Origin: Bacteroidaceae bacterium
GTDB lineage: Bacteria; Bacteroidota; Bacteroidia; Bacteroidales; Bacteroidaceae
Assembly (NCBI GenBank): GCA_017556045.1
Contig: JAFZFF010000046.1
Location: 13,004-77,003 of the forward strand
Reading direction: 5' to 3'
Length of the DNA stretch: 64,000 bases
This document shows, piece after piece, positions 6,939 to 64,000 of this stretch (position 1 is its first letter; each line of letters starts with the position of its first letter). The position numbers and the translations under genes were made by a program. Under the pieces are notes generated by a model. That model was not told the DNA's origin. It was given only the letters and a program-made list of their open reading frames with translations, and did no database searches.

Positions 6939-7072
6939 GAGATAATATAGCTGTTGTCCACAAAGCAAAATCTGCATCGGTTGTCATCCTGACGGCAGGA
7001 AGGATCCCGCGCAAGGACTTGACAAGAGACATATGCGAGAGAAAGAGATTCTTCGCTACGCTCATAATGACA

Positions 7073-7129
7073 CTCCTTAGTGGCGATAAACCGCCAGCCG
7101 TCGCAACCGACGCTTTCATACCGCGTCGG
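7073..7129. repeat. REP-like hairpin repeat (inverted copy of 44789..44845)
   Basis: CTCCTTAGTGGCGATAAACCGCCAGCCGTCGCAACCGACGCTTTCATACCGCGTCGG matches the reverse complement of the 44.8-kb copy apart from a few mismatches. It contains the hairpin CCGACGC...GCGTCGG. Confidence 0.7.
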
Positions 7130-7190
7130 CACTTCGTTCAACATGACAAACGAGGTTTTGTACAACACCTATATTATCCCCTAATAAGAA

Positions 7191-11298: not shown

Positions 11299-11484
11299 CT
11301 AATGACGGAGTATAAAGTCTGCTATGGTATTAGCATCCTCTTTGGTGGGGTAGTGCGCTTTGATGTAGAGGAACTTTTCTTGATATCGGGTATCGTTCTC
11401 ATCGGTTGTTGCATCCATGATAGCCCCCAACTCCACCAGTTCGTCATGTATTGTCTTCATCTCTTCAATATTTTTACTTTTCAC
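11299..11484 (-). CDS. Hypothetical small protein (GVG start at 11484 or ATG at 11460)
   Basis: The ORF overlaps the upstream ORF's stop by 4 nt. I recognise no motif. Confidence 0.35.
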   Translation of the reverse strand: MKSKNIEEMKTIHDELVELGAIMDATTDENDTRYQEKFLYIKAHYPTKEDANTIADFILRH

Positions 11485-11538
11485 TCTTCACTCTTCCCTT
11501 TTCCCTCTTCCCTTTTCACTCTTCCCTCTTCACTCTTT
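11476..11538. repeat. Heptanucleotide tandem array, 9 units (plus strand ACTCTTC/CCTCTTC/CCTTTTC)
   Basis: Direct reading gives a 7-nt period. Minus-strand TGAs at 11532, 11518, 11490 and 11483 fall in all three frames. Confidence 0.85.
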
Positions 11539-16754: not shown

Positions 16755-16792
16755 TTTTTAGATTGACATCTTGTCATAGTTCTTGTCAGTGA

Positions 16793-16849
16793 CAAAGTGT
16801 GCTCCAAGTGTGCACCTACTGTTCACCAAGTGTGCACCAAGTGTGCACC
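16793..16849. repeat. Iteron-like direct repeats CCAAGTGTGCACC
   Basis: Perfect 13-mers at 16804, 16826 and 16837, plus degenerate CAAAGTGTGCTCC at 16793. All spacings are multiples of 11 bp. Confidence 0.7.
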
Positions 16850-16890
16850 GACTGACAAACCATTCCCCTACTGTGCTCCAAGCCATGTGT

Positions 16891-19347: not shown

Positions 19348-20375
19348 ATGAGAGAGTTATACAAGTTTACCTTAGCCCATTATCGGGACATCAAGTGTCA
19401 CAACTGGAACCGCACATGCCCCAACTGTGGGAAGCGAGAGTTTTCACCCTATATCAATATCCTCACAGGGGAACCGCTCGATGATAAACGATGTGGCCGT
19501 TGTAACCGAGAGACGAACTGTGGGTATCATTACTCGCCGAAAGATTGGTTCGAAGACATCGACCCGAGCGTCGTGAGTGGTTGCCCAAGGAGGAGTACAT
19601 CGCTCGCAAGCGCCAAGAACGCCGGGAGGCTGAGGAGGCCAAGCGGATGTATCTACAACGTGAAGCTGAGCGCATGGCACGCAAGTTTGCCCCCCTCAGT
19701 AGTGAGCAACACCCCGATGCACAGGCCTACATGGACCGCATGGATGAGCTGTGTGAGCAGTCGCAGTCGACCGACAATACCTTGGCACGATGGCTGTGTA
19801 CGATGTTTCCTACGGATAAGGTGGATGAGGTGCTCCGACTATACCGCACGGGTAGCACACCGGATGGGTGGATAGTGTATTGGCAGATTGACCTTCACCA
19901 TCGAGCGCGCACGGGCAAGATGATGGCGTATGGGCCTGATGGGCATCGGTTGAAGGGAAGCGGTCCGTCGTTCAACTGGGTACATGCCAAAGAGGGCATA
20001 GAACAATTGGCCGACCAATGCCTCTTCGGTGAACATCGCCTCATGGAATGGGAGGATACCGTCGCCCTCGTAGAGAGTGAGAAGACGGCAATCTACATGA
20101 GCCTCAGATATCCCAACATACTATGGCTCGCTACGGGTGGCAAGCAAAACTTCAAGCCTGAGGTGCTATGGCCACTATGCGGAAGAGAGGTGTATGTATT
20201 GCCCGATGCCGATGCCTTGGATGAGTGGATGGCGAAGGTCGAAGTACTGAATCGTGAGCATGGATATAGGTTCATCATCCACGAAGACTATGTCAGGCTA
20301 TGCACTACTGAGGCTATTGCACGAAAAATGGATATTGCGGACATGGCTTTAGAGGGAAGAGGGTTTAGGGTTTAG
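19348..20375 (+). pseudogene. Zn-ribbon / toprim-like primase gene (DUF6371-like) split by a frameshift
   Basis: The N-terminal part MRELYKF...CPNCGKREF...CGRCNRETNCGYHYSPKDWFED is in one frame. The plausible continuation ...REWLPKEEYIARKRQERREAEE... to stop 20375 is in the -1 frame. The change lies near 19550-19570. Confidence 0.6.
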
Positions 20376-20405
20376 AGTTTAGAGTTTAGAGTTTAGAGTT
20401 TAGTG
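20361..20405 (+). repeat. Heptanucleotide tandem array (GGGTTTA x2, GAGTTTA x4)
   Basis: TAG occurs every 7 nt (20366, 20373, 20380, 20387, 20394, 20401). The second TAG is the stop of the primase ORF. Confidence 0.9.
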
Positions 20406-21839: not shown

Positions 21840-22055
21840 ATCGATGAATTTTATCGTAACACTCATTACCGTAACAACGATTACGATACCGCAAAAATAC
21901 AAATAAAATTATCATTCGTGCAATAAATTGATTGTTTTTATAGATTTTGTAGAGAATTATTATCTTTTTCGATTAATTTTCTTTCCCCACCCCCTCCGTA
22001 GCGCCTCATTTGGAGAATGAAATTTTTGGGAATGTAGTAACTTCGCGTCAGAAAA

Positions 22056-22127
22056 GGTTGAGGGTTGAGAGTTGAGGGTTGAGCGAACTATCCGGAGGCA
22101 AGGTCAACGTCAGCGTTAACGTCAACG
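22056..22127 (+). repeat. Composite element: 4 x GGTTGAG heptamers, core TATCCGGAGGC, 4 x 6-nt GTYRAC-type units
   Basis: Direct reading. The same core lies between two repeat arrays at 51044..51120. Confidence 0.8.
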
Positions 22128-22170
22128 TTTTCAAGAAACAAATGTTTAACCCCTAAAAAAGTAAAAGATT

Positions 22171-22590
22171 ATGGCAATTTCTTATGCTATCAAGAGAGTG
22201 AAGAACCCTGGTAAGAATGCGGTAGAGGGCGTGAAGTACTATCACGCGGCGGCTATCAAGGCGGGTGAGTACGACTTTGAGGAGATGATGACTGACATCA
22301 GCCACTCGACCACGGTGACCGAGGCAGATGCTATGGCAGTGCTCCGCTCGATGAAGAACCACATCATCAAGGCGCTGCTCGCTGGTCAGGTGGTGGTGCT
22401 TCAGGACATCGGCCGCTTCCAGGTAACCCTGCAGGGTAAGTGTTACTCACAGGATGCTATGGCGGCATCGGACTTCTCACCTTCGGCACAGATCACGGGT
22501 CACAAGATCATCTTCCGTCCCGAGGTGAAGCTCAAGCAGTCTGTAGCGGCAGGTATCTCACTCAAGCGCGTGACCACTGAGGCGGCGTAA
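22171..22590 (+). CDS. HU-family (HU_HIG-type) DNA-binding protein
   Basis: 139 aa. The pattern MAISYAIKRVKNPGK...YYHAAAI...GRFQVTL is typical of Bacteroidales histone-like proteins that accompany DUF3987 modules. Confidence 0.75.
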   Translation: MAISYAIKRVKNPGKNAVEGVKYYHAAAIKAGEYDFEEMMTDISHSTTVTEADAMAVLRSMKNHIIKALLAGQVVVLQDIGRFQVTLQGKCYSQDAMAASDFSPSAQITGHKIIFRPEVKLKQSVAAGISLKRVTTEAA

Positions 22591-22705: not shown

Positions 22706-22780
22706 GGTGACTAGTGGGATTCGAACCCACGACATTCAGAACCACAATCTGACGCTCTAACCGACTGAACTATAGTCACC
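22706..22780 (-). tRNA. tRNA-His: tRNA-His (anticodon GTG)
   Basis: The reverse complement folds by hand into a cloverleaf: G-1 + GTGACTA acceptor, anticodon loop TTGTGGT, T-arm GTGGG-TTCGAAT-CCCAC, discriminator C. No CCA is encoded. Confidence 0.9.
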
Positions 22781-22922: not shown

Positions 22923-23097
22923 CTTTTACGCGGAAATTCGTTCACGCGCGAATGATTTAGTTTTCACGCAGACGCCGCAGACTTACGCAGATGGTTGCAT
23001 AGCTATCGCTCGCAACTTGTCGGCTATTAGCCGAGTGTATACGTCCCGGAGGGAACGCACAAGCGAAGCAAGTGCGTGAGACCAAAATTAGTGAGAG
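22923..23097 (+). repeat. GxxExxY-flanking repeat, copy R0 (shortened)
   Basis: CTTTTACGCGGAAATTCGTTCACGCGCGAATGATTTAGTTTTCACGCAGACGCCGCAGACTTACGCAGA aligns with 23557..23627. Its tail GTGCGTGAGACCAAAATTAGTGAGAGT resembles the R2 tail. Confidence 0.75.
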
Positions 23098-23556: not shown

Positions 23557-23770
23557 GCTTTTTATGCGGAATTTCGTTCACGCGTGAATGATTTAGATTT
23601 CACGCAGATGGCGCAGACTTACGCAGAAGCATACATTGCTATCGCTCGTATGTAGCCGTCCGGATGGCAAGCACAAGCGAAGCATTTGCGCAATTCTGCG
23701 TTTTCAGCGCAGTCTGCGTGAGACCTAATTTTCAGCGAGAGTGGTTTGTGTCAATTCTTCGTGAGACTAA
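23557..23770 (+). repeat. GxxExxY-flanking repeat, copy R1 (full)
   Basis: Its 5' part matches R0. From 23598 it is nearly identical to R2, at a 202-bp period. Confidence 0.8.
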
Positions 23771-23799
23771 GAGGGTGCTTACATCGCGGATTTTTTTTG

Positions 23800-23977
23800 T
23801 TTCACGCAGATGGCGCAGACTTACGCAGAAGCATACATTGCTATCGCTCGTATGTAGCCGTCCGGATGGCAAGCACAAGCGAAGCATGTGCGCAATTCTG
23901 CGTTTTCAGCGCAGTCTGCGTGAGACCAAATTTCCAGCGAGAGTGGTTTGTGTCAATTCTGCGTGAGACAAAAAAAC
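23800..23977 (+). repeat. GxxExxY-flanking repeat, copy R2
   Basis: TTTCACGCAGATGGCGCAGACTTACGCAGAAGCATACATTGCTATCGCTCGTATGTAGCCGTCCGGATGGCAAGCACAAGCGAAGCAT... repeats 23598 onward. Confidence 0.8.
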
Positions 23978-44753: not shown

Positions 44754-45070
44754 GAGAGCCTGTTTGGGTTTTATTTCGAGTTTAGTTGCCGACGCGGTAT
44801 GAAAGCGTCGGTTGCGACGACTGCCGGTTTATCGGCACAAAGGAGTTCTCTATTTGGACACCCAGGATTGTCTTATACACATAGAATAGTGGCCTATTAT
44901 TTCAAATGAGGATAGGCTGTACTCGCCGGCCATTGCAAGCAAGCTTACATGCGCTCGTTGGCACTATCCTTTGCAAAAAACGAGAGGAGAAAGATGCCGA
45001 AAACAACTGCAAATAAACGGAAAAGTAAGTTCTACAACAAATAACGTTAAAATCCAAACAGTCTCTCTCT
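44754..45070. mobile_element. About 317-bp non-coding insertion splitting repeat block X (filled site)
   Basis: X head ends at ...CATTTTCCTA (44753) and X tail resumes at GCCCGTGGCT (45071). In the uninterrupted copy the two are 3 nt apart. The insert ends are GAGAG.../...CTCTCTCT, and it carries the 44789..44845 REP-like hairpin. Confidence 0.55.
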
Positions 45071-50741: not shown

Positions 50742-51002
50742 ATGATTTTGCCGAACAGCTTTGATTTCACAACGGTAGAGATAAAGCTAAAAAAAAGGGA
50801 GGTTCGATCGCAAGAAAAGGCCTTTCCCTTTTCTAAAAAACGAATAGCCCATTTCTAAAAAACGAGCCTATGATTTTTCAGAGTAAAGCAAAATAGTATA
50901 GGACAAAGTACTAAGTAAAAAATATTTTTCGCTTTGTACGAGTAAAAAAGTGCTTATTGTAATCTCTGAATTAGCAAAATAGATAAAAATCCCCCAGGTG
51001 GG

Positions 51003-51164
51003 AAAAGTTTATTTTTGGGGTGGCATGGCAACGAAGAGCTTCGAGCTCTGAGCTGTGAGCATTGAACTGCGAGTTATCCGGAGGCTAATTTTTAATGTTC
51101 AATTTTTAACTTTCAAATTGCGAGCTCTGCTCGCTCTGCCATGCCACCCCAAAAATAAACTTTT
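51003..51164. repeat. 162-nt palindromic element: perfect 28-bp inverted repeat enclosing two heptamer stop arrays and core TATCCGGAGGC
   Basis: AAAAGTTTATTTTTGGGGTGGCATGGCA (51003-51030) is the exact reverse complement of 51137-51164. Plus-strand TGA at 51049/56/63. Minus-strand stops at 51085/92/99/106/113. Confidence 0.85.
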
Positions 51165-51247
51165 ATCACCCTGAAAATGGGTGTTTGGGGTGAAATGTTG
51201 GAATATAGGGGTAACTTACGTTAACGTAGGCAATGCGTCGAGCGAAA

Positions 51248-58550: not shown

Positions 58551-59414
58551 TTATTGCTCTGTCTGCTGATAGAATCTGATGTAGTCTATCTCGTATCGTA
58601 TGGGGTACTTCTCGGGCGCAGGAAGACCACCATGTTGTCCTCCGATAGCGAGGTTGAGCAAGAAGTAGTGTGGGGTGTGGAAGGGGTTCTTATGCTCTCC
58701 GTAGGTGCCGTTGATGGTGCGGGTGAGGTCTATGTCGTTGAGCAGCTCGTCGTCGAGGTATATGCGTAGGTACTCGGGCTTCCACTCCATGCGCCAGATG
58801 TGAAACTTATCGGCCCAAGCGGGATCGAGCTCGAGGAAGTGGGCAAAGGGTATGGTCTTGGTATTCCATACGGCTTGGTTGTGGTCGTTGCCCCAGGCGG
58901 CATTGGCAAGGATATGGGGGACATCGTCGATGCGGTAATACTCCATTACATCAATCTCTCCACAAGAGGGCCAGCGCCATTGACTGCCGAGGGTCCAGAT
59001 GGCTGGCCATGAACCTTCGACGATGGGGATGCGGGCTCTTACCTCCAAGGTGCCAAAGAGAAATTCGTGTTTGCCACGTGTGTTGACAGAGGCTGAGGTA
59101 TACTCGGCATATTCGCGCTTTTGACGCCAATCGGGACGTCTGCCATTGGGCAATGACTTCGCATGGTGGGGATTATTGACCTGCTCGTGACGGGCGGTAA
59201 TGATGAGGCATCCATCGCGGCAGATAGCATTGTCGGGCTGGTACCACTGTAGCTCATAGTTGCGTACGAAGCCATGCTCGTAGTTCCAGTCGGCCTCGTT
59301 GAGGGGGCCAGCGGTATTGAACTCGTCGCTCCACACAAGGGTGCCCTTGGTATGGGTTTGGGCATAGAGAAGGGTGGTGAGGAGGCCTATAGTAGTAAGG
59401 AGTATTCTTTTCAT
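58551..59414 (-). CDS. GH16 beta-glucanase (laminarinase/lichenase-like)
   Basis: Signal peptide and the GEIDVMEY (ExDxxE) catalytic motif. Confidence 0.85.
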   Translation of the reverse strand: MKRILLTTIGLLTTLLYAQTHTKGTLVWSDEFNTAGPLNEADWNYEHGFVRNYELQWYQPDNAICRDGCLIITARHEQVNNPHHAKSLPNGRRPDWRQKREYAEYTSASVNTRGKHEFLFGTLEVRARIPIVEGSWPAIWTLGSQWRWPSCGEIDVMEYYRIDDVPHILANAAWGNDHNQAVWNTKTIPFAHFLELDPAWADKFHIWRMEWKPEYLRIYLDDELLNDIDLTRTINGTYGEHKNPFHTPHYFLLNLAIGGQHGGLPAPEKYPIRYEIDYIRFYQQTEQ

Positions 59415-59496
59415 GATTTATGATTTAAGATTTATGGTCACTAGATCTGTGTGATTTTAGACTCATCGCAGGAATGTATGATAAGAGAAAAATAAA

Positions 59497-59549: not shown

Positions 59550-60710
59550 TTAAATCAAGAATCCGAGCAGCACACCTGCGGCACAAGCTGAACCGATAAC
59601 ACCAGCTACGTTGGGACCCATGGCATTCATGAGCAGGTAGTTGGTGGGGTCGGCCTTCTGACCTTCATCGTGAGAGATACGAGCAGCCATAGGTACGGCT
59701 GATACGCCAGCATTACCGATGAGCGGATTGATCTTCTTACCCTTGGGCAAGAAGAGGTTCATGAACTTCACGAACAATACGCCACTGGCTGTAGCGATGA
59801 CGAAGGCGGTGATACCTACGAGCAAGATCTTCAAGGTAGAGGGAGTGAGGAACTCGCTGGCCTGTGTAGATGCACCTACGGTGAGACCGAGAAGGATGGT
59901 GATACAGTTGATCAGGGGACCCTTAGCAGCCTCGGCCAAACGACCTGTAACGCCACTTACGTTCAAGAGGTTTCCGAAGAAGAGCATACCCAACAGGGGC
60001 AAGCCACTGGGCACGATGAAGGCGGTGAGCAACAGACCTACGATGGGGAAGATGATCTTCTCTGTCTGTGATACCTGACGGGGAGCCTCCATGCGGATGA
60101 GGCGCTCTTTCTTTGTAGTGAGCAGGCGCATGATGGGGCGCTGAATCACGGGCACGAGGGCCATGTATGAGTATGCACACACGGCGATAGCTCCCATGAG
60201 GTTGGGCGCGAGCTTCGATGACAGGAAGATGGCGGTAGGACCATCGGCACCACCGATGATGGCGATACCTGCTGCCTGGTCGGGCTCAAAGCCGAGAAGC
60301 AATGCAATAATGTAAGCTGCGAAGATACCGAACTGAGCAGCAGCACCTACGAGCATCATCTTGGGATTGGCGATGAGCGGAGCAAAGTCGGTCATGGCAC
60401 CAATGCCGAGGAAGATGAGGGGCGGGTACCAACCGGTCTTAACACCCTGGTAGAGGATGTTGAGCACTGAACCCTCTTCATAGAGACCGATTTCAAGACC
60501 GGCATCTGCCTTAAAGGGGATGTTACCCAAGATAATACCAAAGCCTATGGGCACGAGCAACAGAGGCTCCCAGCCCTTCTTGATGGCGAGTGTGATGAAG
60601 AGGCATCCTACCGCAATCATCACAATATGGCCAACCGTAGCATTGGCAAAACCGGTGTATTGCCAAAAGTCTACGAGGTTATTTCCGATAAAATTAAAAA
60701 AGTCGTTCAT
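59550..60710 (-). CDS. mmdB: Na+-translocating decarboxylase beta subunit
   Basis: 386-aa polytopic membrane protein with the OadB/MmdB-type sequence and operon context. Confidence 0.88.
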   Translation of the reverse strand: MNDFFNFIGNNLVDFWQYTGFANATVGHIVMIAVGCLFITLAIKKGWEPLLLVPIGFGIILGNIPFKADAGLEIGLYEEGSVLNILYQGVKTGWYPPLIFLGIGAMTDFAPLIANPKMMLVGAAAQFGIFAAYIIALLLGFEPDQAAGIAIIGGADGPTAIFLSSKLAPNLMGAIAVCAYSYMALVPVIQRPIMRLLTTKKERLIRMEAPRQVSQTEKIIFPIVGLLLTAFIVPSGLPLLGMLFFGNLLNVSGVTGRLAEAAKGPLINCITILLGLTVGASTQASEFLTPSTLKILLVGITAFVIATASGVLFVKFMNLFLPKGKKINPLIGNAGVSAVPMAARISHDEGQKADPTNYLLMNAMGPNVAGVIGSACAAGVLLGFLI

Positions 60711-60720
60711 GTTATTGATG

Positions 60721-60875
60721 GACCCCCTCTAACTCCCCCTCTATGGGGAGGATTCAGCCTTCGCGGAGGAGCAGAATGAGGTTGTTTTATTGATTTTACA
60801 TCTTAAATAATTGATATTCGCCCTGCATGGTTTCTCCCCATAGAGGGGGAGATGCCCAAAGGGCAGAGGGGGTCT
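60721..60875. repeat. 155-bp nested-palindrome element, copy A (within the mmd operon)
   Basis: Outer IR GACCCCCTCT/AGAGGGGGTC and inner IR CTCCCCCTCTATGGGGAG/CTCCCCATAGAGGGGGAG. It is near-identical at both ends to 63867..64000. Confidence 0.85.
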
Positions 60876-61313
60876 TTATCCAAGTGTGATGATGTCAGTG
60901 CCTTCTGCGATTGACTGACCCTTCTCTACGTTGATAGATACTACGGTACCCTCGCGGTCTGCATTGATGTTGTTTTCCATCTTCATTGCTTCGAGGATGG
61001 CGATGGTCTGACCCTTGCTTACTGCGTCGCCTACCTTTACCTTGATATCGAGGATGACACCGGGCAGAGGAGCCTTGATACCTGCGCCACCAGCTGCGGG
61101 AGCAGCCTTAGGTGCGGGAGCGGCCGCGGGAGCTGCAGCTGCAGGAGCTGCGGCGGGACGTGCTACGGGTTTGCTTACTGCGGGCTTGGCCGGACGGTCG
61201 AGCTCTACTTGGTATGACTTGCCATTGACGGTAACGTTGGCCTTGTTACCTTCGAGTTCTTCTACGGCTACATTGTATTCGTTGCCGTTGATTTTATACT
61301 TATATTCTTTCAT
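60876..61313 (-). CDS. mmdC: Biotin carboxyl carrier subunit of the decarboxylase
   Basis: EAMKMEN biotinylation motif and an Ala/Pro linker. ATG at 61313 (the ORF-track start at 61331 is TTG inside the heptamer array). Confidence 0.85.
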   Translation of the reverse strand: MKEYKYKINGNEYNVAVEELEGNKANVTVNGKSYQVELDRPAKPAVSKPVARPAAAPAAAAPAAAPAPKAAPAAGGAGIKAPLPGVILDIKVKVGDAVSKGQTIAILEAMKMENNINADREGTVVSINVEKGQSIAEGTDIITLG

Positions 61314-61325
61314 GTCTTCCAAAAT

Positions 61326-61362
61326 TTTCAATTCTCAATTTTCAATTTTCAATTCTCAATTG
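61326..61362 (-). repeat. Intercistronic heptamer array, 5 x (R)AATTGA on the coding strand
   Basis: Plus-strand TCA at 61328, 61335, 61342, 61349 and 61356 gives TGA every 7 nt on the minus strand. Confidence 0.9.
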
Positions 61363-62267
61363 TTAGCATGTGTACGAGTCAGCATACGCCAGCTTGATTC
61401 GCCACCATTGATGGTGAGGATATCACTCTCTTCATCGTGTACGTTGCCGAAATGCTCGTGCAATGCCATGCAGATGGCTGCCATCTCTTCGTCGTTAGCG
61501 TCGCCCTTGGTTGCGGGTGCTTCGGGAGCAGGAGCTGCCTTAGGAGCGGGAGCCTTCTTGGTGCTTGAGATGGTGCTTGCAAAGATCTTGCCGATGATAG
61601 CGAAGAGCCACCAGAGGATAGCAAGAGCTGAGAATACTACCGCCATACACATCACGGTCATACCGAGGCCGAGGCTATCCATACGCTTGAACTTGGCCAC
61701 CTTGCCTTCGCCCTGCTCTACGATATTGGTAGCTGCGGGGGTCACGTTGTCGGCAGTCACGATGCGCCATTCGCCTACGCCGTCCTTAGCGCGAGCCCAT
61801 GACTGGTTTTCGCCGAGGGCGGGCACGGTGACTGAGTCGAGTAGGGTGGTGCCGTTAGCATCGTACAGAGCAATCCAGTTTTCGGTGCTGTCTTTCAATG
61901 TAAAGTTCGTGTGGAAGATACCGCGCTTGGGAAGCTCGTCGGCGAAGAAGAGCATCTTCTGCTTACCCTCAATATGGGTGTCTACGCTTCCCGAAGGTAT
62001 CTGATACATCATCTTGATGCGCTCGGGTGCACTGAGCTCCTTGTTCAGCACGGCGCGATTGGTCGTGAGGAAGCAGTTGCGTGCGTTCGCCGAGGCAAAG
62101 GCATCATTATGAAATTCTATCCATGCCGAACGGCAGCCATACTCGTCGACGATGCTGGCTGTGTTGGTCACGAGAATCTCATTAAACTTGAGGTTCTTGG
62201 CACCCTGGGCAAAGCCCGCGGTGGTAGCCAAGAAAACCATTAGTGTTGTTAATATCGTTTTTTTCAT
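61356..62267 (-). CDS. OadG-family subunit with N-terminal lamin-tail-like domain
   Basis: Signal peptide, an LTD-like N-terminal region (FNEILV...), a TM helix, an Ala/Pro linker and an OadG-like C-terminus. ATG at 62267 (the track start at 62276 is TTG). Confidence 0.7.
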   Translation of the reverse strand: MKKTILTTLMVFLATTAGFAQGAKNLKFNEILVTNTASIVDEYGCRSAWIEFHNDAFASANARNCFLTTNRAVLNKELSAPERIKMMYQIPSGSVDTHIEGKQKMLFFADELPKRGIFHTNFTLKDSTENWIALYDANGTTLLDSVTVPALGENQSWARAKDGVGEWRIVTADNVTPAATNIVEQGEGKVAKFKRMDSLGLGMTVMCMAVVFSALAILWWLFAIIGKIFASTISSTKKAPAPKAAPAPEAPATKGDANDEEMAAICMALHEHFGNVHDEESDILTINGGESSWRMLTRTHANN

Positions 62268-62310
62268 AATTGTCAATTTTCAATTATCAATTATCAATTG
62301 TCAATTATTA
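62268..62310 (-). repeat. Intercistronic heptamer array, 5 x AATTGAN on the coding strand
   Basis: Plus-strand TCA at 62273, 62280, 62287, 62294 and 62301. It is preceded by the mmdA TAA stop at 62308-62310. Confidence 0.9.
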
Positions 62311-63858
62311 CAGAGGTATATTGCCGTGTTTCTTCTTCGGGTTCTCAAGCTTCTTGGTCTGCAACTCTGCCAATGCGCGGATGATGCGGAAGCGGGTGTT
62401 GCGAGGCTCGATAACGTCGTCGATGTAGCCGTACTTGGCAGCATTGTAGGGATTGGCGAAGAGCTTGGTGTACTCGGCCTCCTTCTCGGCGATGAATGCC
62501 TTGGGGTCTTCCTGCTCCTTAGCCTCCTTAGCGTAGAGTACAGCAGCAGCACCACTTGCACCCATCACGGCAATCTCAGCAGAGGGCCATGCATAGTTCA
62601 TGTCGCCACGGAGTTGCTTACAGCTCATCACGATGTGGCTACCACCGTATGACTTACGCAGAGTAACGGTTACCTTAGGTACGGTAGCTTCGCCGAAGGC
62701 GTAGAGCAACTTAGCACCGTGGAGGATAACGGCATTGTACTCCTGGCCTGTGCCGGGGAGGAAGCCGGGAACGTCTACGAGGGTCACCAAGGGGATATTG
62801 AAGGCGTCGCAGAAGCGTACGAAGCGAGCAGCCTTGCGTGAAGCGTTGCAATCGAGCACGCCAGCGAATGCCATGGGCTGGTTAGCTACGATACCTACTG
62901 ACTCGCCATTGAAGCGTGCGAAACCTACGATGATGTTCTTCGCATAGTCTTTCTGTACCTCGAGGAACTCGCCATTGTCGATGATAGCGCCGATAACCTC
63001 ATACATATTATATGCCTTGTTGGGGTTGTCGGGGATAATCTCGTTGAGGAGGTCTTCCTTGCGGTCGATGGGGTCGGTGCATGCTACGCGGGGAGCCTGC
63101 TCCATATTGTTCTGAGGCATGTATGAGAGGAGTTTGCGGATCATTGCCAATGCCTCTTCCTCGGTCTGAGCGGTGAAGTGTGTCACACCTGACTTTGATG
63201 AGTGTACTGATGCGCCACCGAGCTGCTCCTGGGTAACGTCTTCGCCGAGCACGGTCTTAACAACGGCAGGACCTGTGAGGAACATGTATGAGGTACCTTC
63301 CATCATCAAGGTGAAGTCGGTGAGGGCGGGTGAATATACGGCACCACCTGCGCAAGGGCCGAAGATACCTGAAATCTGAGGAATCACACCTGAAGCCATG
63401 ATATTGCGCTGGAAGATCTCTGAGTAGCCAGCGAGCGCGTTGATACCCTCCTGGATACGTGCACCACCCGAGTCGTTGATGCCGATGACGGGAGCACCCA
63501 TCTTCATGGCAGCATCCATAATCTTACAGATCTTCATCGCCATGGTCTCTGAGAGTGAGCCTGCGTTTACGGTGAAGTCCTGTGCGAATACGTATACCAA
63601 GCGGCCGTCGATAGTACCATAACCGGTTACTACACCATCACCGAGGGCTTGCTTCTTCTCCATGCCGAAGTTGTGGCAACGGTGGGTGACAAACATGTCC
63701 ATCTCTTCGAATGAACCCTTGTCGAGCAACATATCGATGCGCTCACGTGCGGTATACTTACCCTTCTCATGCTGCTTTTCAATGGCTTTAACGCCGCCGC
63801 CCAAACGGGCTTTCTCGCGCAGCTCTACGAGTTCTCTGATTTTATCTAATTGTGACAT
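62308..63858 (-). CDS. mmdA: Methylmalonyl-CoA decarboxylase alpha subunit (carboxyltransferase)
   Basis: 516 aa, carboxyltransferase family throughout, in an operon with the biotin carrier and Na+ pump subunits. Confidence 0.9.
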
Positions 63859-63866
63859 AATGGGAG

Positions 63867-64000
63867 ACCCCCTCTAACTCCCCCTCTATGGGGAGGACTC
63901 AGCCTTCGCGGAGGAGTAGAATGAGGTTGTTTTATAGTTATACTTTTAATTTATTGTATTCGTCCCGTATGGTCTCCCCATAGAGGGGGAGATGCCCAAA
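63867..64000. repeat. Nested-palindrome element, copy B (cut by window end)
   Basis: It starts GACCCCCTCTAACTCCCCCTCTATGGGGAGGAYTCAGCCTTCGCGGAGGAG... as in copy A. Its right arm is CTCCCCATAGAGGGGGAGATGCCCAAA. Confidence 0.85.

Follow-up and report, generated by a model that had tools for sequence, protein, structure and literature searches.

Cyanobacterial short tandemly repeated repetitive (STRR) sequences were reportedly described by Mazel in 1990. Among the long simple sequence repeats (LSSRs) of bacteria, those with heptanucleotide units are the commonest, and slippage of the polymerase has been put forward as their origin (Mrazek 2007, by way of PMC4679880 and PMC4692102). In Beggiatoaceae, cyanobacteria and five Bacteroidetes, MacGregor (2015) described intergenic repeats of TAACTGA that lie shortly before start codons, give stop codons in the forward orientation and differ between strains by 7-nt indels, and proposed that they bind post-transcriptional factors (PMC4679880). 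Likewise, Rehm (2015) reported intergenic heptamers in Xanthomonas and Nostoc, some of them intercistronic (pecE-pecF) and some arranged as inverted pairs (PMC4692102). Here we analyse a stretch of 64,000 nt from a Bacteroidaceae bacterium (contig JAFZFF010000046.1 of assembly GCA_017556045.1; the whole stretch is called the window), and in it a tandem array of 7-nt units, array A, that separates the oadG-like gene from the mmdC gene of a methylmalonyl-CoA decarboxylase operon. By its copy number, the excess of period 7, its intergenic site and its variation in steps of one unit, array A is a heptanucleotide simple-sequence repeat. We consider it probable that it is a solo repeat of this type, (NAATTGA)5, which occupies the whole oadG-mmdC spacer. 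The preliminary description of this DNA knew of no description of such arrays. This view is not upheld, since TAACTGA heptamers (PMC4679880) and an intergenic excess of heptamers (PMC4692102) had already been described. The class is therefore known, and it has not previously been highlighted in Bacteroidales; indeed, no description of heptamer arrays from Bacteroidales or Prevotella was found in the literature searched.

The operon is encoded by the minus strand at the right end of the window and comprises mmdA, the oadG-like gene fused to a lamin-tail domain (LTD), mmdC and mmdB. Across the oadG-mmdC junction the minus strand reads AAC AAT TGA, followed by GAATTGA (61355-61349), AAATTGA (61348-61342), AAATTGA (61341-61335) and GAATTGA (61334-61328), and then by AAATTTT, GGAAGAC and ATG; the first full unit, CAATTGA (61362-61356), ends with the TGA of the oadG/LTD gene, whose last sense codon, AAT, also belongs to this unit. 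These data confirm what the preliminary description had reported, namely five 7-nt units with an exact 7-nt period and a TGA in each, the first TGA being the genuine stop of the upstream open reading frame (ORF), and stops in all three frames, as the five TGAs at offsets 0, 7, 14, 21 and 28 cover frames 0, 1 and 2. Tandem Repeats Finder (TRF) delimits the array at 61323-61361, with period 7, 5.6 copies and 90% matches. The distance between array A and the ATG of mmdC is 14 nt, or 7 nt when a degenerate sixth unit is counted. Array A is thus in forward orientation a few nucleotides 5' of an initiation codon, and this also holds for array B, which flanks the oadG/LTD gene on its other side in the same direct orientation, 0 nt from the oadG ATG.

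With one fixed detector, six period-7 arrays were found in the window (11471-11537, 20360-20403, 22054-22083, 59410-59434, 61323-61361 and 62268-62306), where 100 order-2 Markov simulations predict 0.01, and zero arrays of period 6 or of periods 8-12 were found in the window with the same detector. The recurrence of the design had been taken earlier as the sign of a class of elements rather than of chance, and this stands; the arrays are placed at gene boundaries. The sites on which that argument drew are of unequal value. Those at 62268, 20361, 11476 and 22056 are period-7 arrays, whereas 51049-51115 is not cleanly so, as TRF gives only a 14-nt unit repeated 2.1 times at 51087-51116. Array B (62268-62307) has the unit family of array A and makes up the whole mmdA-oadG spacer, reaching from the TAA that ends mmdA (62310-62308) to the ATG of oadG (62267-62265), and in the array at 20360-20403 (GTTTAGR x6), which is followed by a terminator-like hairpin, the upstream ORF ends at the TAG of the second unit. 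The array at 11471-11537 carries TGA in only 4 of its 9 units, and the upstream 125-aa ORF enters it by 57 nt; the one at 22054-22083 is not located 3' of a gene; it belongs to a divergent intergenic region, where it provides a hairpin with its 5' arm.

The same excess was observed in related genomes, where it had been suggested that period-7 arrays should be sought. In a comparison set from 80 other Bacteroidales species, made up of 950 kb that surround their mmd operons, 23 period-7 arrays were detected, versus 0-3 at each other period from 4 to 12. The Bacteroidales arrays comprise about 15 different units, and 28 of 29 are intergenic, although intergenic DNA accounts for 17% of the sequence. 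The constant feature is the 7-nt period and not the unit sequence. AATTGA as a uniquely favoured unit was considered and rejected: tandem stretches in viral contigs numbered at least 120 for AATTGAN x4 and 112 for TGATTTN, a unit discussed below as a cassette arm, but the permuted AT-rich controls AAGTTAN, ATAGTAN and AGATTAN also formed 49, 85 and 75 of them, respectively. The unit is therefore common, not unique. When metagenome contigs were scanned for (AATTGAN)x4, at least 120 stretches were recorded; the samples came from gut, rumen, termite, soil, freshwater and sediment. The sample selected in this manner consists, among the matches listed, of 120 loci and 740 kb with 129 AATTGAN arrays. 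At least 60 of these are solo and lack a partner within 1.5 kb, 39 more have no visible partner but lie less than 700 nt from a contig end, 21 form short-loop hairpins, and 7 have a partner at a cassette-like distance of 120-700 nt. Because they have no inverted partner, arrays A and B fall into the majority solo class.

Array A varies between strains by whole units. Seven metagenome contigs (L001-L007) encode an MmdC identical to that of the window. The oadG-mmdC spacer measures 42 nt with 5 units in the window and in L002-L005, 35 nt with 4 units in L006, and 21 nt with 2 units in L001, so that the differences are exact multiples of 7; in L007 a degenerate array follows a TAA stop. Collapse during assembly is an unlikely cause of these differences, because a sequencing read exceeds the arrays in length.

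Beyond these strains, the spacer is not kept, contrary to the conservation that would be expected of a functional element in orthologous mmd operons. The closest species representatives are two metagenome-assembled genomes (MAGs) of uncultured 'Bacteroidaceae bacterium' (L008 and L009) with MmdA proteins 98% identical to that of the window, all others being at most 88% identical; judged by sequence, the host lineage fits a Prevotella-like bacterium of animal gut metagenomes. L008 has an array resembling array A at the oadG-mmdC junction (CAATTGA, GAATTGA, AAGTTGA, AAATTGA), while L009 carries a 165-bp miniature inverted-repeat (MITE) element in its place and L035 has arrays of a different unit. 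In about 70 orthologous operons this junction is a non-repetitive, A-rich spacer of 20-35 nt, and counted by species some 75 of 80 lack an array there. The junction between mmdA and the next gene behaves similarly. Most species have short plain spacers there, a MITE takes the position of array B in L009, and heptamer arrays occur sporadically with differing units (TAATTGA in L008, ATTGAGA/ATTGAAA in Bacteroides muris and B. gallinarum, AGTAAAT in L077 and L079), or as inverted pairs (L035, L044 and L069). No mmd operon was present among the matches listed for the AATTGAN metagenome loci, so these provide no further orthologous junctions. As a separate observation, the mce-mmdA spacer contains 'empty' hairpins with heptamer-array arms in L002 (1157-1273; TGATTTA/TAAATCA) and L008 (5900-6000; TGAATTN/ATAATTC), and the loops of both share the 13-mer CCAACGATGAGGG, which is oppositely oriented relative to the operon in the two contigs.

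A simple model may account for these features. Units of 7 nt would be gained and lost by slipped-strand mispairing or unequal recombination, and the repeat would spread until coding constraint halts it. Such a limit could explain why the first unit overlaps the last codon and the stop of oadG and why the array ends a few bases before mmdC. Indeed, the oadG gene ends with AAT TGA in array-bearing lineages versus AAC TAA in L009, which lacks the array, and the repeat has therefore extended into oadG as far as synonymous change allows. The stops in all frames would arise automatically once a stop triplet is seeded in a repeated 7-nt unit. The only requirement on the spacer may be that it is AU-rich and unstructured for Shine-Dalgarno-independent initiation at mmdC, with which spacers with and without an array would both comply.

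Several observations weigh against slippage as the full account. It leaves unexplained why the period is 7, rather than 5, 8 or 10. Nor does slippage alone explain that, among the matches listed, sense AATTGAN arrays adjoin the upstream stop and antisense ones the downstream start, or that in the short-loop inverted pairs the AATTGA arm is the 5' arm in 21 of 21 cases (p about 1e-6). Furthermore, exactly 5 units are present in each of five contigs that share identical flanks but come from different samples, so that the array, although variable between strain types, is not hypermutable. Lastly, the unit family also forms the arms of the PF05635 cassettes described below, so a more specific generating process may be at work.

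The preliminary description had proposed that the array is a frame-independent translational stop or insulator, which would end translation ahead of the next cistron whatever the frame of the ribosome. We regard selection for such a function as very improbable. In its favour, array A has a TGA in all three frames of which the first is a genuine stop, a stop is present on the sense strand in 16 of 20 Bacteroidales arrays between co-directional genes, and the 5' arms of the Bacteroidales PF05635 cassettes examined almost all contain TGA and start at the upstream stop. However, stops in every frame are a matter of arithmetic: since 7 mod 3 = 1, any 7-nt unit with a stop triplet gives them once it is repeated at least three times, and the stop codon of the upstream gene seeds both array A and array B. 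The enrichment of stop-bearing units that would be expected of an insulator was not significant. A tandem heptamer drawn from sense-strand operon spacers holds a stop with a probability of 0.45, and an AT-rich one with a probability of 0.61, against which 16 of 20 gives p=0.057; the antisense strand of the same arrays has a stop in 11 of 20 (Fisher p=0.18). In the larger AATTGAN sample no strand preference was seen either, as the stop-bearing strand was sense in 27 and antisense in 30 arrays between co-directional genes, and in 23 further antisense cases an ORF runs through the stop-free strand (both among the matches listed). Stops in all three frames are missing from 60 of 80 orthologous mmdA-next-gene spacers; the 20 that have them include 6 of the 60 spacers of at most 45 nt. 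In addition, L001 has only 2 units, the ORF upstream of the array at 11471-11537 is translated well into it, and arrays are found in divergent and convergent intergenic regions too. The spacer itself is ordinary, and its all-frame stops are no evidence of a new translational device, by which an over-interpretation is averted.

It had further been suggested that the array serves as an A/U-rich, unstructured re-initiation pad. Weak folding of the array RNA (-6.4 kcal/mol, z = -1.0 for array A and -7.8 kcal/mol for array B) is compatible with this suggestion, but the property is not specific to arrays, as spacers without an array are equally AU-rich and unstructured. For the region from -40 to +20 of mmdC, the predicted folding energy was -2.6 kcal/mol for the window. 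The strains with 2 and 4 units gave -1.2 to -2.7 kcal/mol, and 70 array-less orthologues had a median of -1.15 kcal/mol, the window value falling inside their range. The array would thus be compatible with Shine-Dalgarno-independent initiation, with no advantage seen in silico. The weak folding of arrays A and B also led us to reject a structured RNA element, and for array A an intrinsic terminator or a repetitive extragenic palindrome (REP)-like intercistronic hairpin was rejected likewise, given the lack of a stable hairpin. A curated RNA family was not found, since a scan of the window with Rfam 15 at gathering thresholds matched only a tRNA (22706-22779).

A related possibility is that the array tunes expression. 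Its copy number might determine how far the cistrons lie apart, or how long the leader is, and thereby the translation of mmdC and oadG, or the repeat might bind S1, Csp or CsrA. This seems to us quite unlikely, though less so than an insulator. Bacteroidetes initiate without Shine-Dalgarno sequences from AU-rich unstructured leaders (PMC3155529), the copy number of array A does differ between strains, and a precedent exists in Haemophilus influenzae hmw1A and hmw2A, where a transcribed (ATCTTTC)n repeat in the 5' untranslated region (5'-UTR) tunes expression via a hairpin processed by RNase III (PMC12721329). Moreover, AATTGAN arrays end 0-16 nt from the downstream start in 12 of 27 sense and 18 of 30 antisense cases among the matches listed, and most Bacteroidales arrays do likewise. 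This proximity is, however, equal in both orientations, and a sequence-specific RNA-binding site is therefore disfavoured. Further points speak against tuning: orthologous spacers without the array have the same AU-rich, unstructured character, the array is dispensable in close relatives, its copy number is stable at 5 in five independent samples of one strain type, and the product of the operon is a stoichiometric housekeeping complex with no contingency function.

Another alternative to a solo simple-sequence repeat comes from genes of the PF05635/S23p family, the four-helix-bundle products of which we take to be homologues of the ORF of 23S rRNA intervening sequences (IVSs) and of the Avd protein of diversity-generating retroelements. 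In L002, where MmdC is identical to that of the window, the mmdC-mmdB spacer contains a gene for a PF05635 protein of 120 aa (23S rRNA intervening-sequence protein/TIGR02436 four-helix bundle; L002:4439-4942). The 5' arm of this cassette consists of TGATTTA arrays that run from the mmdC stop, and its 3' arm of TAAATCA arrays that end at the mmdB ATG; the last 25 nt of the 3' arm are identical to window positions 59436-59412, the solo array before the GH16 gene. According to this alternative, inverted heptamer arrays form, in bacteria generally, a long RNA stem whose loop contains a PF05635 gene located between co-transcribed genes, the stop-bearing 5' arm starting at the upstream stop and the 3' arm ending at, and delivering, the downstream ATG. 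Arrays A and B would then be orphan 5' arms, seeds or landing pads of an unrecognised, IVS-like selfish cassette system, and the window arrays would have lost, or never acquired, the gene and the partner arm. We give this a minor but appreciable chance.

The cassette architecture itself proved to be reproducible. By profile search, 7 PF05635 ORFs were found in the AATTGAN-selected loci (among the matches listed) versus 0 in the 950 kb of mmd loci (Fisher p=0.003). Six of the 7 are bracketed by inverted arrays, and the seventh, in L200, runs off the contig end. The arms are of the AATTGAN type, pairing with TCAATTN, in L121, L094, L152 and L166 (in the last, the 5' arm is mostly AATGGAA), of the AATTGAC type with reversed polarity in L142, and AATTACT/AGTAATT in L179. 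A second, independent Bacteroidales sample that was selected by protein (L208-L251) contained six distinct insertion sites, namely pheT-yebC, serA-like-DUF1015, sucC-sucD, BFN-rsmE, rsmE-truA and mmdC-mmdB (e.g. L228:1477-1890 and L238:1175-1612). Inverted heptamer arms were present at 6 of 6 sites, spanning from the upstream stop to about 16 nt or less before the downstream start, and their copy number differs between strains. In minimum free energy (MFE) folds of whole cassettes, the arms are predicted to pair across the 360-nt ORF (e.g. 24/28, 28/34, 27/30 and 31/34 arm bases). A tblastn search of plasmids for PF05635 gave 31 records, 16 of them from Nostoc, and ten plasmid genes sampled down the ranking (L252-L261), from Bacteroidota, Cyanobacteriota, Spirochaetota, Bacillota and Chloroflexota, had inverted heptamer arrays on both sides in 10 of 10 cases. 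As to the base rate of such arrays, in 50 kb of Nostoc punctiforme pNPUN02 the sole arrays of period 4-12 are the two PF05635 arms, in 50 kb of a Euhalothece plasmid the sole period-7 array is an arm, and in a Gloeocapsa plasmid of 30.8 kb one of three period-7 arrays is an arm.

Three further observations concern the cassettes as such. Two of them surround rsmE within one operon (BFN-PF05635-rsmE-PF05635-truA; L247:1-2360 and L251), and the 86% identity of the two proteins together with their common TGAATTN arm family suggests that the cassette was duplicated with its arms. On plasmids, cassettes occur inside restriction-modification or defence-like operons (hsdS-hsdR, helicase-N6 methylase, DUF1156-Swt1 HEPN) in L258 (Monoglobus), L259 (Planktothrix), L260 (Chlorohelix) and L261 (Gloeocapsa). 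Most contigs with a PF05635 gene are shorter than 2 kb, which suggests that the repeated arms cause breaks in short-read assemblies, so that cassettes may be under-represented in MAGs.

Besides the L002 cassette and the AATTGAN/TCAATTN-type arms in L094, L121, L152, L166 and L142, it is in favour of orphan arms in the window that arrays A and B begin exactly at the upstream stop, like 5' arms do. Another parallel is provided by Coxiella burnetii, whose 23S intervening sequence forms a 28-bp stem that RNase III cuts and carries an S23p ORF in its loop, with 2-3 tandem GACAGAT heptamers, variable in number between strains, just 5' of the S23p start (PMC4990558). On the other hand, no PF05635 ORF was found in the window by jackhmmer or Pfam, arrays A and B repeat each other directly and lack an inverted partner, with no TCAATTN array nearby on the same strand, and no cassette or hairpin was present at these two junctions in any relative examined. 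Of the AATTGAN arrays, at least 60 of 129 among the matches listed are solo as well. The causal direction could also be either way, as cassettes could generate arrays or merely reside in them. Small ORFs beside the window arrays were considered as PF05635 genes and rejected, Pfam giving HU-HIG for 22171..22590 and no family for the others. The placement of sense and antisense arrays and the strict hairpin polarity hint at a link with the arm architecture, and are no proof of it. In the limited literature covered by our search, no paper links PF05635 genes to flanking heptamer arrays, apart from a passing note on Coxiella. A solo simple-sequence repeat therefore remains our preferred interpretation of array A.

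With regard to their wider meaning, these findings show that heptamer repeats also occur in operons of Bacteroidales from gut and rumen, and they link the widespread PF05635/S23p/Avd-like family, the function of which is unknown, to heptamer arrays by a reproducible architecture within operons of at least five phyla. If this link is causal, two old puzzles may be approached together, namely the dominance of 7-nt repeats and the nature of intervening-sequence/S23p elements. If the cassette reading is true, part of the bacterial excess of intergenic 7-nt repeats would be the product or footprint of such a system, and the logic of a stop combined with a re-initiation pad would apply to the cassette, minimising polar effects on the host operon.

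The features of the operon and the arrays of the window are listed in the Table. An exact-protein look-up with the oadG/LTD protein retrieved no identical protein on record. The solo array before the GH16 gene was absent from the preliminary description. The hairpin at 22054..22128, which lies upstream of the HU-HIG gene 22171..22590, folds with its arms paired at an MFE of -28.4 kcal/mol.

Table. Coordinates of the mmd operon genes, heptamer arrays and associated features in the window.
Feature	Coordinates	Strand	Basis or remark
mmdA, carboxyltransferase subunit	62308..63858	-	ORF; Pfam Carboxyl_trans on identical gene in L001
Array B (TAATTGA, CAATTGA, TAATTGA, TAATTGA, AAATTGA, CAATT)	62268..62307	-	TRF, sequence; unit family as in array A
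oadG-like gamma subunit fused to LTD	61356..62267	-	Pfam OAD_gamma 5.7e-16, LTD 2.7e-4
Array A, five full NAATTGA units	61328..61362	-	sequence read; the oadG-mmdC spacer feature under study
TGA stop codon of oadG/LTD, inside first repeat unit	61356..61358	-	ORF end
Degenerate sixth unit AAATTTT	61321..61327	-	followed by GGAAGAC, then mmdC ATG 61313-61311
mmdC, biotin carboxyl carrier	60876..61313	-	ORF; Biotin_lipoyl
mmdB, OAD_beta membrane subunit	59550..60710	-	ORF, Pfam
Solo array TAAATCT, TAAATCA, TAAATC (TAAATCA x3.4)	59413..59436	-	adjoins GH16 ATG 59414-59412
Solo array GTTTAGR x6	20360..20403	+	3' end of DUF6371 gene; stop TAG 20373-20375 in second unit
Hairpin: 5' arm GGTTGAG x4 (period 7), loop with TATCCGGAGGC, 3' arm GTCAAC-like x4 (period 6)	22054..22128	+	
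Array AAGAGTG/AAGAGGG/AAAAGGG x9	11471..11537	-	between two small ORFs

Other repeats are present in and around the operon. A MITE-like element of about 155-165 bp with the terminal inverted repeats GACCCCCTCT...AGAGGGGGTC has two copies in the window, at 60721-60875 and at 63866-64000, the latter being cut by the window end. These copies fill the mmdC-mmdB spacer and the region just upstream of mmdA, and they end 6-10 nt before the ATG; the upstream regions that contain them are strongly structured (-16 to -19 kcal/mol). Kin of this element were found at three mmd junctions in L009, and also in L008, L010 and L011.

Elsewhere in the window, the TATCCGGAGGC loop motif of the hairpin, at 22089, occurs again at 51075-51085, inside a 174-bp element (50997-51170) that is bounded by 34-nt inverted repeats with 94% complementarity. 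A shared intergenic loop motif was rejected, because across 1.8 Mb of loci the only occurrences of TATCCGGAGGC beyond 22089 and 51075 are within coding sequence. Positions 23583-23972 hold a 202-bp tandem duplication (1.8 copies, 94-97% identical), with a third partial copy 636 bp upstream (22924-23012) and the tRNA gene at 22706-22779 nearby. An 11-nt tandem array, AAGTGTGCACC x5 at 16792-16854, and a 9-nt repeat at 1539-1575 (score 60) are the only non-period-7 short-period arrays with a TRF score of at least 60 in the window. Lastly, the arms of a 60-nt inverted repeat with 93% complementarity lie 37.6 kb apart, at 7072-7131 and 44787-44846.

Among the closest of the systems described before are the LSSRs, as far as these are portrayed in the later papers that cite the survey. 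Array A shares with them tandem 7-nt units, an intergenic location, an excess restricted to period 7 and a length polymorphism in unit steps between relatives, whereas the genomes portrayed as rich in LSSRs are those of Burkholderia, cyanobacteria, Actinobacteria and Xanthomonas, and array A is from Bacteroidales. The TAACTGA repeats are similar in their forward stops, their 2-6 or more copies near a start codon, their mixture with other heptamer arrays and their 7-nt indels, but the unit of array A is NAATTGA and thus outside the TAACTGA family by sequence. The orientation towards the downstream gene also differs, being random in the AATTGAN metagenome sample (among the matches listed) and mostly forward in BOGUAY, the 'Candidatus Maribeggiatoa' Orange Guaymas draft genome (PMC4679880). 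The STRR sequences, the GGGGA(T/C)T repeats and the Xanthomonas GGGAATC repeats likewise form intergenic or intercistronic arrays, some of them as inverted pairs, with pronounced length variation between close relatives; their units, however, are G-rich and can form quadruplexes, whereas those of the window are AT-rich and unstructured. The hmw repeat is also a 7-nt tandem repeat of variable copy number that is transcribed upstream of a start codon, but it has 11-63 copies, a hairpin and a phase-variable adhesin as its target, as opposed to 2-5 copies, no hairpin and a housekeeping operon at the oadG-mmdC junction. The cassettes of the relatives, finally, resemble the 23S intervening sequences in having a PF05635 ORF that is looped out by a 20-30-bp inverted-repeat stem, with variable 5' heptamers, and differ from them in being located in protein-coding operons instead of rRNA and in having stems that consist wholly of heptamer arrays. 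The window arrays, by comparison, have neither the ORF nor the partner arm of the intervening sequences, and what they share with the cassettes (L094, L121, L152 and L166) is the placement at start and stop codons and the unit family.

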